Shown here: piece by piece, positions 16,750 through 36,397 of the stretch
Layout of the letters: each line of letters opens with the position of its first letter
Numbering within the stretch: the first letter of the stretch is position 1
Virus record (IMG/VR): IMGVR_UViG_3300042291_001568
Coordinates: 1-64,000 of that record
Reading direction: 5' to 3' (one strand)
From: a virus
DNA: 64,000 bases
Translations under genes and position numbers: made by a program
Notes under the pieces: generated by a model
Told to the model about the DNA's origin: nothing
What the model saw: the letters and a program-made list of their open reading frames with translations, nothing else
Databases searched by the model: none

Positions 16750-17526
16750 ATGAGAGCGCGGCCTAACGACCACGACCGTCTGATTGAAGAAGCGCGCACG
16801 CACCTTGGGTACAAACCAAGACCGGGCGGAATTTCTTTCTATGCGGAAAAGGTAGGGTACGCAAGTCACGGGTCGCCCTGGGACGGTGCGTTCATAGACG
16901 TAGTTGCACGGGATGCAAATTGCGTTATCCCATCTTGCACTTCAACATCTTCCGGCCTGGCTGAGTTCATCTACAGTGGACGGTGGCGAAAAACGCCTCG
17001 GCCTGGTGACATTGTCTTCTATTCTTTCTCAACGGGTGGTCCATGGACTCAACCTCACGTCGGAATAGTCACAGGCGTGGACCGTTGGAAAATTGATGGT
17101 ACGTTCATTGCGCTCGAGGCGATGGTGGATTCCGGCCTGCCCCAGGGCTCAAAAGAGATGACGGGTGTGTTTGAGCGAGTTCGTTGGAAGAACGAGGTTC
17201 TTGGATTTTGTAGGCCAAATTTCAAACTCAGGCCTGAGCTAGGAAAAAATAATATGACGGGTGCCAAAAACACCTTGAAGCTTTCGCACCTAAAGCCGAG
17301 GAAGAAACACGAAAGTGTCAAGGTTCTTCAGCAGGCTCTGAAGATTACCTCAGGATTGGTTTATTACGAGGCAGGCCACTACGACAACATGACCCAAAAC
17401 GCGTTCGCCCGTTGGCAACGCCAAATCGGGTACGTCGGCGAAGATGCCAACGGAATCCCAAATCACTCCTCACTTTCCCGATTAGGGAGCCAGACAGGGC
17501 TATTTCAGATCGCATCTGAAAACTAG
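16750..17526 (+). CDS. CHAP/NlpC-P60-like protein with C-terminal peptidoglycan-binding domain (endolysin-like)
   Basis: LIEEARTHLGY, PWDGAF, PGDIVFY, HVGIV; C-terminal VKVLQQAL...YDNMTQNAFARWQ (PG_binding_1-like). Confidence 0.75.
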   Translation: MRARPNDHDRLIEEARTHLGYKPRPGGISFYAEKVGYASHGSPWDGAFIDVVARDANCVIPSCTSTSSGLAEFIYSGRWRKTPRPGDIVFYSFSTGGPWTQPHVGIVTGVDRWKIDGTFIALEAMVDSGLPQGSKEMTGVFERVRWKNEVLGFCRPNFKLRPELGKNNMTGAKNTLKLSHLKPRKKHESVKVLQQALKITSGLVYYEAGHYDNMTQNAFARWQRQIGYVGEDANGIPNHSSLSRLGSQTGLFQIASEN

Positions 17527-17546
17527 GGAATATATAATAAAACCAG

Positions 17547-17960
17547 ATGAACAAGCGCCTAACTGACGAATGCGACAGCTGCGGCTCAGACATCCGTATC
17601 ATACCAGCGCCAGGGCTGAGCACTGACCCAGAGCAGACTATGTCTGGCTATCGCCAGGTTGAAAACGGCTGGTGTCTAAATCTGTCTGGCGGCTACGCTG
17701 AGTTTACTGACGACTGCTTTGTAGAAAACAGTCCACTGCTGTACGTTGTGCTGTGTCACGACTGCTGCTTAAAAATCGCAAGGATGCTTCCTAATCTATT
17801 TCCGCCGGGAACTGGCACGCACCCTCCGCATACTGAAAATAATTCCGATGCGTCGTGCTGTGAGTTTAACTGGTCTATAGACTCGCATGGCTGCACAGTC
17901 GTCGGCGACGGCAAAGGCGGCTGGGTTGAACGCATTGCGCCATCAGGAGAAGTAATCTAG
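17547..17960 (+). CDS. Cys-rich hypothetical protein
   Basis: First cassette gene; CDSC, CHDCC and CC motifs; stop lies in the next promoter copy. Confidence 0.7.
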   Translation: MNKRLTDECDSCGSDIRIIPAPGLSTDPEQTMSGYRQVENGWCLNLSGGYAEFTDDCFVENSPLLYVVLCHDCCLKIARMLPNLFPPGTGTHPPHTENNSDASCCEFNWSIDSHGCTVVGDGKGGWVERIAPSGEVI

Positions 17961-18045
17961 GGAAAATATAATTACCCTAAATCATAACGCAGGGTAAAGT
18001 CCTGTGTTATAATGACAGTATCCACAACGACATAGGAGACAGAAA

Positions 18046-18630
18046 ATGAAAACCATTCCAGTCCAGTTACAACCGTTTATTGAAGCACGACGTGCTCGTG
18101 GAAAAACCACGCGCGACATTGTTCAGTTCATCGTAGATGCTACGGACGTTCCGCTCACTGCGCTTGAAGTAACAAATCTCGCAGCACAACTCAACGAACG
18201 AGTCTACGACTACAACTACATCACGAAGATTCTTCGAGAGCTTATTGTTGACGGGCTTGCAATTAGCCGAATTGAAACCGATCAAGAGCGAAGCACTAGA
18301 TCTTACGGGCGTCTTGTGAAAGGTCACAACGCGACCTTATTCATTGGAACGTCAACGGGCCGCACGACAGTGCCGACACGCACGGTCGGTATTGCTGTCC
18401 CAGGCGTGGAGCTAGGCCAGAAGGTTGACGGGATCACCTACAGGTACAAGCACAAGACGAAAGCTGGAAAAAAGAAACGGGCTTCAACTCGTGTTCTGGT
18501 TTCCGGCCTGCCTAGCAAAACCACAGCGATGACGGGTGACGTTGCCGATCTTCTCGAGCAGCTGATTGCTGCACGAACAGCGAAGCTTCAATCGAAGCTT
18601 GATCGCATCACACGCATACTCGCCGAGTAA
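18046..18630 (+). CDS. putative winged-helix DNA-binding protein
   Basis: PLTALEV...YITKILRELIVDGL is wHTH-like; basic C-terminal half; AGGAG RBS. Confidence 0.55.
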   Translation: MKTIPVQLQPFIEARRARGKTTRDIVQFIVDATDVPLTALEVTNLAAQLNERVYDYNYITKILRELIVDGLAISRIETDQERSTRSYGRLVKGHNATLFIGTSTGRTTVPTRTVGIAVPGVELGQKVDGITYRYKHKTKAGKKKRASTRVLVSGLPSKTTAMTGDVADLLEQLIAARTAKLQSKLDRITRILAE

Positions 18631-18723
18631 AAAGTTCCGGCCTGAGCTGGGCTTCCCCGTGTATGACGGGCAGGCCTGAGCTCGGATTGTATTTCATTAA
18701 CGGGCACGTGTTATCGTGTACGA

Positions 18724-18981
18724 GTGATGTACAATTACGCGATGTACGTAGTCGAAGATCTAGAGCATTGCTTCATATCTGCGAATAAGGGTATCTACGA
18801 TTTTGTCATTGACGACGAAGAATGCAAGAACTGTGGAATGGTTGTTGGCCCGTATGGCGACTCGTTCTTCCCATGCGTAATTCTCGTAGGTCAAGACGAA
18901 GGAGAGTCATGGCCGATCTGCGTTGAATGCGCCGCGCCATTGCTGTACCCACGAGAATGGATCGATGAACTAGACGTGTAG
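18724..18981 (+). CDS. zinc-finger-like protein
   Basis: CKNC and CVEC motifs; start uncertain. Confidence 0.6.
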   Translation: MMYNYAMYVVEDLEHCFISANKGIYDFVIDDEECKNCGMVVGPYGDSFFPCVILVGQDEGESWPICVECAAPLLYPREWIDELDV

Positions 18982-19149
18982 CCAGATAATTAGTACTATG
19001 CCCGTAGTACTAATTATTCTAAGGATGATACTATTTGCTTCATCGGGATCGCCAATATCTGACTTAGCCCCACCTGGTGGGAAAACTAAGGATGGTATAA
19101 TGATCTCATACCCAAGCAATCCTGCCTGGGAGCGACGAAAGGACAAATA

Positions 19150-19404
19150 ATGGAACAGCGCAAATGGTGTCTCCTCAAGGGGAGCGACGTTGGCCCGATG
19201 GGCCGTGGCCAAGCTGGCAAGAAGAAAGTATACGAGATCATCGTCTCGGACAACGTTCTTCGTTGCGAGTGGGGCATGGCTGAAAAGACCCAGCGTCAAT
19301 CAAGCACTCGGGTGTTCACATCACACCAGTCAGCACGTGCCGCAGCCTACGAGAAGTTGTGGGCGAAGCAGGACCGCGGCTACACCGTGGCCTACGCTGT
19401 CTAA
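19150..19404 (+). CDS. standalone WGR-domain protein (paralog 1)
   Basis: KKVYE...CEWG...Q...A...K...K..RGY WGR pattern; promoter and RBS present. Confidence 0.8.
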   Translation: MEQRKWCLLKGSDVGPMGRGQAGKKKVYEIIVSDNVLRCEWGMAEKTQRQSSTRVFTSHQSARAAAYEKLWAKQDRGYTVAYAV

Positions 19405-19423
19405 ATAGACAGTGAAGTTCTGG

Positions 19424-35024: not shown

Positions 35025-35345
35025 ATGAAGACAGCAATGGTAATTGACACACAGGGACACGTGTCCACATTAGACATCTCAGTGCGCTCACTTGAGCAAA
35101 TGCAAGCTGCGGTCGGCGGATACGTCCAAGCGGTAGACATAGCCGACGACGTAACCTTGTGGTGCAACGAAGAAGGCAAAATGATGGGTCTCGAGCATAA
35201 TCCATTTGCTCAGCTCCTGTGGGATCGCACTTTCGGTGCGGGTACTGACTACATCGTCGGAACAGTGGTCATCACTGGTGGCGCGGACGATGAAGGCGAG
35301 ACTGTGGGACTGACAGCCGAGCAGGTAGCGTCGCTCGGGCTATAA
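35025..35345 (+). CDS. DUF3846-like protein
   Basis: LEQMQAAVGGYVQAV...LWCNEEGK...N..A...DYIVGTVVI. Confidence 0.8.
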   Translation: MKTAMVIDTQGHVSTLDISVRSLEQMQAAVGGYVQAVDIADDVTLWCNEEGKMMGLEHNPFAQLLWDRTFGAGTDYIVGTVVITGGADDEGETVGLTAEQVASLGL

Positions 35346-35394
35346 GTTCTAAAGAAGATATAATTGAACTATCAACGAATGACAAGGACAACTC

Positions 35395-35586
35395 ATGACT
35401 GAGTACGAAGTTCACGTAGTCTTTCGTGTCACTGAAGAAGACAGCGGCATTGAGGAGCAAGTAGCCGAACGAGCATGGTCTTTCATCGAGCAGACTCTCG
35501 AGCCGACATCAATTGATGTGCTCAGTGTCAACGAGATTCCAGAAGCGCCTTCAGCAGAGATCATCGCATTCCCACGCGCTGACTAG
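35395..35586 (+). CDS. hypothetical acidic protein
   Basis: Cassette promoter and RBS; stop inside the next motif. Confidence 0.75.
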   Translation: MTEYEVHVVFRVTEEDSGIEEQVAERAWSFIEQTLEPTSIDVLSVNEIPEAPSAEIIAFPRAD

Positions 35587-35632
35587 GGATTGTATAATTG
35601 AACTATCAACAGCAACGACAAAAGGACAGAAA

Positions 35633-35890
35633 ATGAAAGTATCGCCAAAAGACCTAGACAATTTGATCTTTGCTCTCGCGCCGCTAGACACTAAGGCGTT
35701 GCGTGACGCGCATCTCACCAGCTACGCTAAAGGAGAGTTGCGGTGCAAAGATGCCAACGTGCGCTATCGCTGGGATCTATACTGGACAGCAGTCTATCGT
35801 GGATTCTCGTTCAGCAAAGATACGTACAACGATGCGCACATTGACACAGCACTTCGTCATGCGGTCCCTTTACTAATCGATGTTATCTAA
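35633..35890 (+). CDS. hypothetical phage protein
   Basis: RYRWDL...NDAHIDTALR; cassette RBS. Confidence 0.8.
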   Translation: MKVSPKDLDNLIFALAPLDTKALRDAHLTSYAKGELRCKDANVRYRWDLYWTAVYRGFSFSKDTYNDAHIDTALRHAVPLLIDVI

Positions 35891-35952
35891 TTAGGTAACA
35901 GCGCGGTAAGGTTCTACGGATTGTATAATAACTACATAGCAACGAAGGGACA

Positions 35953-36162
35953 ATGATGACAACCACATTTTACTCAAAAATAGAAACTCGGCGGTGCTCG
36001 CATTGCGGGTATAAAGGCGAAGTTGAAGTGCCCAACGCGGGCTTATTCAAACGCAGCTCAGGCGCGCTAATCCAAGAGGCTTTCCCAGACCTCAGCAAAG
36101 AACTCCGGGAGCAGCTAATGACTGGCACTCACCCCGAGTGCTGGGCAGAGATGTTTGGATAG
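35953..36162 (+). CDS. zinc-binding hypothetical protein
   Basis: CSHC...LIQEAFPDLS...REQLMTGTHPECW. Confidence 0.75.
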   Translation: MMTTTFYSKIETRRCSHCGYKGEVEVPNAGLFKRSSGALIQEAFPDLSKELREQLMTGTHPECWAEMFG

Positions 36163-36208
36163 CTGCGGATTGTATAATTGTCTTATCAGCCAAAACAAAA
36201 GGACAACA

Positions 36209-36379
36209 ATGAGAACAGTAAATGACATCATGGAAGAGATCGAAGTTGGGATCATGGACGCCCAGTCCGACTACCCACACCTTAGCCTTGAAGACCTCAC
36301 AGGAGACGTGGTCCGCAGCATCGTTGTGGATTGCCACCCAGCTGTAGCCAGCGAAGTGCTACGGCGGTACGGTCTCTAG
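36209..36379 (+). CDS. hypothetical protein
   Basis: Cassette RBS; stop inside the next motif. Confidence 0.7.
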   Translation: MRTVNDIMEEIEVGIMDAQSDYPHLSLEDLTGDVVRSIVVDCHPAVASEVLRRYGL

Positions 36380-36397
36380 GGATTGTATAATAATCTT

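Follow-up and report, generated by a model that had tools for sequence, protein, structure and literature searches.

A Repeated Promoter-like Element Holds Upstream Stop Codons and Bounds Gene Units Gained and Lost in a Freshwater Actinophage

The first 64,000 nt of the virus record IMGVR_UViG_3300042291_001568 (116,822 bp, CheckV completeness 87%), hereafter the window, contain an array of small genes that is punctuated by a repeated motif with the consensus AATCTAGGGATTGTATAAT followed by a conserved TCT(C/T)AT start region. Thirteen open reading frames (ORFs) in this array end on a TAG or TAA (TAR) that belongs to the motif copy of the next unit, and the window differs from closely related strains by the presence or absence of single units composed of a motif copy, a leader, and an ORF. 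We consider it likely that two processes jointly explain what is observed, namely the anatomy of the motif, the frame bias of the stops, and the polymorphism of units with its breakpoints: ORFs would be packed against a repeated promoter, and the same promoter repeats would mediate the recombination of whole units, the promoter activity and the recombination pathway being what we infer. One short DNA element would then combine three roles, as a predicted promoter, as the stop codon and last residue of the upstream protein, and as a recombination target.

Stop Codons within the Repeated Motif

The array holds 55 copies of the motif at two or fewer mismatches, and a looser pattern gives 62 matches compared with 2.7 expected by chance. 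A first-pass annotation of this DNA, made from the letters alone, had proposed that ORFs end on the TAG or TAA of a CTAG or CTAA in the downstream motif. All 13 junctions that it listed are correct (table 1), and the gene calls of identical public contigs give the same ends. When stops are counted by their offset to the motif, 13 lie at offset 0 compared with ~1.5 per position at offsets -4 to -13 (Poisson P of at least 13 given 1.5 = 8e-9). An ORF entering the motif in the second frame would stop on the TAA of the -10 hexamer TATAAT, and an ORF in the third frame would run into the leader. The TAA-bearing TATAAT is present in 50 of the 55 copies; in the window, no ORF ends on it and none reads through the motif. 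The probability of a 13:0 distribution given the availability of the two stops is 3e-5, and that of 13:0:0 given three equal frames is 6e-7. A null model of random frames or simple deletion, against which the annotation had proposed to test the frequency of in-frame stops, does not predict this outcome. A 14th candidate junction at 33439 was rejected: homology supports 33114-33365 as the gene at this place, and in a close strain this motif copy reads CTAC.

To compare these junctions with those of related phages, we collected sequences that are all metagenome assemblies. Contigs of other strains (L043 and L061-L069), which are ~95% identical to the window, were found by exact-protein look-ups, several of which gave solely the window's own strain. 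A sister species (L070-L073, ~82% protein identity) has the same array with CTAA as the majority motif variant. Among named relatives, the nearest is the Actinomycetia phage DSL-LC01 (contig L001), itself assembled from a metagenome, with 57% identity in the CobT-like protein and 84% in the terminase; its published description does not mention promoters or repeats (PMC10611076). Exact-motif scans of IMG/VR found a single related contig, IMGVR_UViG_3300044732_003033, the remaining hits being lone chance matches. A megablast search with 8 kb against the phage collection gave no match, and searching IMG/VR with the CobT-like protein as the only query gave no relative. Contig joints in Logan assemblies of four lake metagenomes have short sides of 20-35 nt and were used only as weak independent sightings, and some were assigned to an incorrect copy of the promoter; the joint 35910>36665 in fact corresponds to the L043 junction to 36195.

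The overlap of stop and predicted promoter is, judging from gene calls and open frames in these relatives, a trait common to the lineage. Stops lie in the motif at 9 of 37 motifs in the sister species L070 (database gene calls), at 2 of 23 in DSL-LC01 (annotated coding sequences [CDSs]), and at ~18 of 43 in the IMG/VR relative L007/L019 (open-frame heuristic). The homologs compared do not extend past the motif, and the fused state adds at most one residue: in the sister species, the ortholog of ORF 20440-20652 terminates one codon earlier on a TAA of its own, after which the motif AAC TAG is left untranslated, and the more distant DSL-LC01 orthologs have their own TGA and unrelated tails. A homolog search with the 100-aa gene reached close relatives only, and for 7 of the 13 genes the comparison of C-termini is confined to such relatives.

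The stereotyped C-termini ending in N or I that the annotation had pointed out are also borne out, the last codon being AAC or ATC at 11 of the 13 junctions. The A and the A/T that precede the C are equally conserved in the 42 motif copies in which they are noncoding, which shows that the stereotyped residue stems from the motif. In line with this, orthologs with an otherwise conserved tail toggle between I, N, and F at the last residue (EFGI/EFYN/EFNN, CGI/CGF, and PVI/PAF). Six further ends had been described as vestigial motif stops where no full promoter follows. These ends exist, but at least two of them, at 22221 (PAKI*, found in three phages) and 41475, are conserved natural C-termini in relatives. 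Genes as a whole show a mild enrichment of A[AT]C-TAR ends (8 compared with 2.85 expected, p = 0.008).

Genome compaction by itself would explain the overlap if the promoter happens to hold a TAR and deletion has squeezed the genes against it, with no role for recombination and no cassettes. The genome is very compact, with ATGA and TAATG overlaps at promoterless junctions, offset 0 is the nearest feasible stop given the fixed motif bases, and the fused and unfused orthologs of ORF 20440-20652 are a single codon apart. However, random deletion of a gene's own stop would spread the ORFs over three frames, unlike the distribution observed, and the motif variants are lineage-specific. Compaction accounts for the overlap but not for the dynamics of the units, that is, eight single-unit polymorphisms and several translocations with crossovers inside common motif bases (see below), and we regard it as an unlikely explanation of the array as a whole. 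In our reading, the overlap is instead the tightest packing that leaves the promoter intact, and it arose when a gene's own stop was merged with the TAR of the motif. Intermediates of such merging are found as doubled 5' halves of the motif at 26888-26925 in the window and at two DSL-LC01 junctions (L001 15969 and 23610), and as the one-codon difference between the 20440 orthologs.

The Motif as a Predicted Promoter

The motif is probably an early promoter that is recognized by the host RNA polymerase, lacks a -35 box, and has an unusual upstream element; both its activity and its start site are predictions from sequence. We favor a host-polymerase promoter because the -10 hexamer is perfect (TATAAT), because its spacing to start codons fits leaderless or Shine-Dalgarno (SD) initiation, and because a search for a phage sigma factor or a T7-type RNA polymerase found none. 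The 55 same-strand copies, each ahead of a gene, together with the WhiB gene of the record and its actinophage relatives, also speak for this reading. The ATG follows the -10 at two distinct distances. In 10 units, about one in five, the ATG lies 6-8 nt past the -10 without an SD, which is the known geometry of leaderless actinobacterial mRNAs, whereas the remaining units have an A/C-rich leader with an AAGGAC-type SD and an ATG 24-58 nt past the -10. Nearly every unit has its own promoter copy.

The conserved upstream element spans about -26 to -16 and begins with A-A-(T/A)-C-T-A-R. A conserved -35 box was not found, and only three copies pass a two-hexamer scan. Because the A, A/T, C, T, and A bases are also conserved in the 42 noncoding copies, the upstream element is part of the motif rather than coding sequence. 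CTAG has an observed/expected ratio of 0.79 in this genome, like other palindromes. We also considered that the motif might supply stops in all three frames (TAA at -5, TAR at 0, and TAA in the -10), but the T at -4 lacks conservation, which rules this idea out.

The majority spelling of the motif differs from lineage to lineage, and neighboring copies resemble each other slightly more than randomly paired ones do (p = 0.003); both observations fit some homogenization among copies. About five copies at the distal end of the array (window 42270-44183) form a sub-dialect with a GATGATAAAGT-type -10 region, which may represent a different promoter class or timing class.

At two places, window 29002-29100 and 29536-29739, a promoter copy is followed by 80-200 nt without a plausible ORF. 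The first of these stretches is rich in short hairpins, an Rfam search gave no match in either, and they may represent small RNAs or what is left of lost units. A second repeat of ~36 nt, which starts with CCGGCCTG and ends with GATGACGGGCA, occurs in five copies in the longer intergenic gaps (table 1) and may act as a terminator, as a binding site, or as a small RNA.

Gain, Loss, and Movement of Single Units

Comparison of the window with the ~95% identical strains revealed eight independent differences, in each of which exactly one promoter-leader-ORF unit is present on one side and absent on the other (table 1). All 16 breakpoints of these events fall between -4 and +63 of a motif start. 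Five of the eight events recur in two to four independent assemblies, and two, one of which was found in a single assembly, match Logan contig joints of other runs. Three-way alignments mapped four crossovers, all of them within identical stretches of 5-21 nt that are common to both parental promoters, and the four sites differ: the GGATG just 3' of the CTNN, the 12-nt core, 21 bases from the -10 into the leader, and the SD/ATG.

Similar changes are seen over larger distances. Within the sister species, 12 indels distinguish the strains, of which at least 8 are motif-bounded. Between the window and the sister species the backbone is collinear, but the unit at 20012 has moved by ~9 kb and the pair at 27995-28220 by ~4 kb, and the small genes are widely reordered relative to DSL-LC01 and L019. 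Three paralogous small genes of ~83 aa with a weak WGR-like Pfam match (window 19150-19404, 33114-33365, and 43714-43965; 61-71% DNA identity) lie in three separate units, which shows that units are also duplicated within the genome.

Taken together, whole-unit differences between close strains, breakpoints in the promoter/leader repeat, and units that have moved between species support the proposal of the first-pass annotation that the motif behaves as a cassette boundary. Its further suggestion that the stop is donated by the neighboring unit holds in part. ORF 27557-27976 ends with ALI* on a motif stop in the window and in L070, L071, and L073 with a different unit behind it each time, so its stop is indifferent to what follows. 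In contrast, of the four crossovers that were mapped, three fall 3' of the TAR; they retain the upstream ORF, whose stop stays with it. In the fourth (30219-30473), the ORF and its stop were deleted together.

Table 1. Motif array, stop-in-motif junctions, and polymorphic units in the window
Feature	Position in window	Strand	Remarks
Motif array	17520..44171 (copies counted 17523 to 44171)	all 55 copies +	each copy precedes one or a few small ORFs
Endolysin-like ORF 16750-17526 (..SEN*)	junction 17521..17538	+	motif TAG; sister species likewise (AEN*, TAA)
ORF 17547-17960 (..EVI*)	junction 17955..17972	+	motif TAG
ORF 20440-20652 (..GKN*)	junction 20647..20664	+	motif TAG; sister species has own TAA one codon earlier
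ORF 20695-21183 (..PVI*)	junction 21178..21195	+	motif TAG; L070 and L019 orthologs also on motif (..PAF*)
ORF 25024-25326 (..AAI*)	junction 25321..25338	+	motif TAG
ORF 27242-27538 (..YEN*)	junction 27533..27550	+	motif TAG
ORF 27557-27976 (..ALI*)	junction 27971..27988	+	motif TAG; orthologs keep stop, four different downstream units
ORF 27995-28174 (..FGI*)	junction 28169..28186	+	motif TAG; last residue N in close strains and sister species
ORF 28220-28405 (..CGI*)	junction 28400..28417	+	motif TAA; last residue F in relatives
ORF 28781-29005 (..VMN*)	junction 29000..29017	+	motif TAG
ORF 30215-30481 (..LTN*)	junction 30476..30493	+	motif TAA
ORF 35395-35586 (..RAD*)	junction 35581..35598	+	motif TAG
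ORF 36209-36379 (..YGL*)	junction 36374..36391	+	motif TAG (TAA in strain L043)
Polymorphic unit, ORF 28781-29005	28745..28999	+	absent in L061, L062, L063, L067; crossover in GGATG of flanking motifs
Polymorphic unit, ORF 30215-30481	30219..30473	+	absent in L061, L062; crossover at leader SD/ATG
Promoter with extra unit in L043, L061, L062	32907..32932	+	+184 nt, 51-aa ORF between two motif copies
Polymorphic unit, ORF 33482-33667	33462..33672	+	absent in L043, L061; Logan contig joint in 3 runs
Promoter with extra leaderless unit in L043, L061	33986..34020	+	+274 nt, 79-aa ORF between two motif copies
Polymorphic unit, ORF 34240-34473	34240..34484	+	absent in L043; crossover inside 12-nt promoter core
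Polymorphic unit, ORF 34737-34964	34750..34962	+	absent in L043; crossover in 21 identical bases, -10 box into leader
Polymorphic unit, ORF 35956-36162	35954..36194	+	absent in L043; junction promoter in Logan contigs of two other runs
Second ~36-nt repeat	18637-18672, 26546-26581, 26608-26643, 31500-31535, 31548-31583		twice paired just upstream of a promoter copy

How Units May Be Shuffled

Because the stop codon lies inside the repeat between single-ORF units that are gained and lost, an integron-like mechanism was a candidate and had been drawn on as an analogy in the annotation: a site-specific recombinase would cut a fixed core (approximately CTAG) and move ORF cassettes, and the stop would lie inside the recombination site, as in some attC sites. 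However, no Phage_integrase (PF00589) or Resolvase (PF00239) domain was found in the 116.8-kb record, which is 87% complete, so the search for a tyrosine or serine recombinase in the rest of the genome that the annotation had called for came back empty. Crossovers fall at variable points of a 16-60 nt repeat rather than at one site, each unit has its own promoter instead of depending on one common Pc, and there is no attC-like palindrome. Around the -10 there is a weak imperfect inverted repeat, but folding z-scores range from +0.9 to -2.7 and are mostly insignificant, covariation is not clear (4.40 compared with 4.29 pairs, p = 0.05), and an Rfam search of the array gave no match. The cassette boundary is supported but an integron-like mechanism is not, and we consider the latter highly improbable.

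Crossover points that vary within short homologies instead argue for homologous or slippage-type recombination rather than a site-specific enzyme. RecT, ERF, RecA, and YqaJ were sought in the genome and none was found; the sole recombination-type gene detected encodes a Sak4-like AAA_24 ATPase (66 bits) and lies outside the window at genome positions 100906-101538.

Our preferred explanation combines packing and recombination as follows. The repeat would be an early promoter of a freshwater actinophage, probably used by host RNA polymerase without a -35 box. ORFs would be packed against its upstream element, in which the TAR would be the closest possible end that avoids coding through the promoter core and so would have become the stop of 13 ORFs, and the two motif bases before the C would set the last codon to AAC or ATC. 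The promoter-leader repeats (~16-60 nt) would serve as substrates for homologous or microhomology-mediated recombination, perhaps carried out by the phage Sak4-like ATPase together with host functions, and recombination between them would delete, insert, or move single promoter-leader-ORF units. As the TAR is at the same place in most copies, an ORF that ends there stays terminated whichever unit follows. Stop-merged packing would be tolerated, and perhaps favored, under shuffling.

A stronger form of this explanation, with which it is compatible, holds that the TAR is itself selected as a built-in universal stop at the 5' edge of the promoter, a plug-in grammar for genes. The TAR is present in 40 of the 55 copies, that is, in 27 of the 42 noncoding copies in addition to the 13 used as stops; CTGA variants act as stops in relatives; ORF 27557-27976 uses the stop of four different downstream units; and A[AT]C-TAR ends are enriched away from promoters, as given above. 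Against selection for a stop, unused copies are only weakly conserved at motif positions 3 and 4 (~1.0 and 0.4 bits) and tolerate CTCR, which is common, and other nonstop spellings, so that neither promoter function nor the stop requires a TAR there. Moreover, in none of the four mapped crossovers is a built-in stop needed, since the TAR remains with the upstream ORF in three of them and this ORF is itself lost in the fourth. We therefore regard a selected stop as possible but doubtful. The same tentative standing applies to its widest version, in which a promoter edge (A-A-T/A-C-T-A-R) shaped as a plug-in terminator codon would, together with promoter recombination, make up a cassette grammar of a family of freshwater actinophages, and excised units, possibly circles as with the PeSLs of T4-type phages (see below), would spread genes between co-infecting phages. 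If this were true, any ORF placed before any promoter copy would be expressed and correctly terminated.

Several points weigh against the joint explanation by packing and recombination. Viable indels of whole genes must break in intergenic DNA, which here is nearly all promoter and leader, and for this reason the location of breakpoints alone is no proof that the motif causes the events. About 3 of the 12 sister-species indels are not at a motif, and the region from 17.3 to 28.7 kb is collinear between strains, indicating that not every promoter pair recombines often. The variants come from metagenome assemblies and may include chimeras, although repeats shorter than the assembly k-mer and a divergence of ~5% from the window throughout argue against this. 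Finally, the annotated DSL-LC01 CDS at L001 34763-35005 continues across a promoter copy and stops on the TAG of its -10 box (TATAGT), so that deeper overlap is possible. This CDS is homologous to window 42015-42248, has a C-terminal extension of ~30 aa, and is the sole deeper overlap seen.

Other Features of the Record

The record encodes WhiB, ThyX, HslV-like, and CobS/CobT-like genes in addition to the endolysin, the nearest relatives of the genome are actinophages, and the phage is abundant across many lake-water metagenomes, with 23 DNA runs that contain it. Its host would probably be a freshwater actinobacterium of the Microbacteriaceae or of a related group. Just upstream of the array lies a tRNA-Thr (TGT) gene (window 14847-14919). 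A tandem array with a 66-nt period (window 47809-48138) consists of ~5 copies that are 69-77% identical and is located downstream of the terminase region.

Comparison with Known Systems

The array shares with integrons (IntI and attC) the arrangement of single-ORF units and a junction repeat that can hold the stop of the upstream ORF, but differs from them in that no integrase and no attC structure were found, each unit has its own promoter, and the crossover point varies. A moron is a gene with its own promoter that is inserted between two genes. Like the morons of lambdoid and other phages, the units described here are self-contained combinations of promoter and gene on a conserved backbone; in contrast to morons, ~55 of them share one promoter sequence in a contiguous array and they mostly lack terminators of their own.

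The closest known system is the modular shuffling mediated by PeSLs, the promoter-early stem-loop regulatory cassettes of T4-type phages (Arbiol, Comeau & Krisch 2010, PMC2839356; Comeau et al. 2014, PMC4122927), although the array is not a clean member of it, and the likeness is judged here from assembled contigs. In both systems, a hyperplastic region holds small ORFs of unknown function that are flanked by a repeated early promoter, close relatives gain, lose, and replace repeat-bounded units (here in 8 of 8 differences from the window strain and in at least 8 of the 12 sister-species indels), and crossovers fall at variable points in the repeat with no dedicated site-specific recombinase. 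The legend to a PeSL figure also begins the element at the stop codon of the upstream gene. The differences are that the host here is actinobacterial, that the promoter lacks a -35 box and has a different conserved upstream element, that no convincing stem-loop or terminator was found, terminator-like sites being not enriched (21 compared with 19.9 expected), that one in five units is leaderless, and that the stop lies inside the conserved promoter element in 24% of junctions, where it fixes the last residue. Experimental documentation of repeat-mediated modular shuffling is limited to T4-type phages that infect Gram-negative hosts; our findings would extend such shuffling to a lineage of uncultured actinophages with a different promoter architecture, lacking a -35 box and with partly leaderless units. 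Since lake populations hold haplotypes that differ by single units, they provide natural time series in which the gain and loss of such genes are directly measurable.

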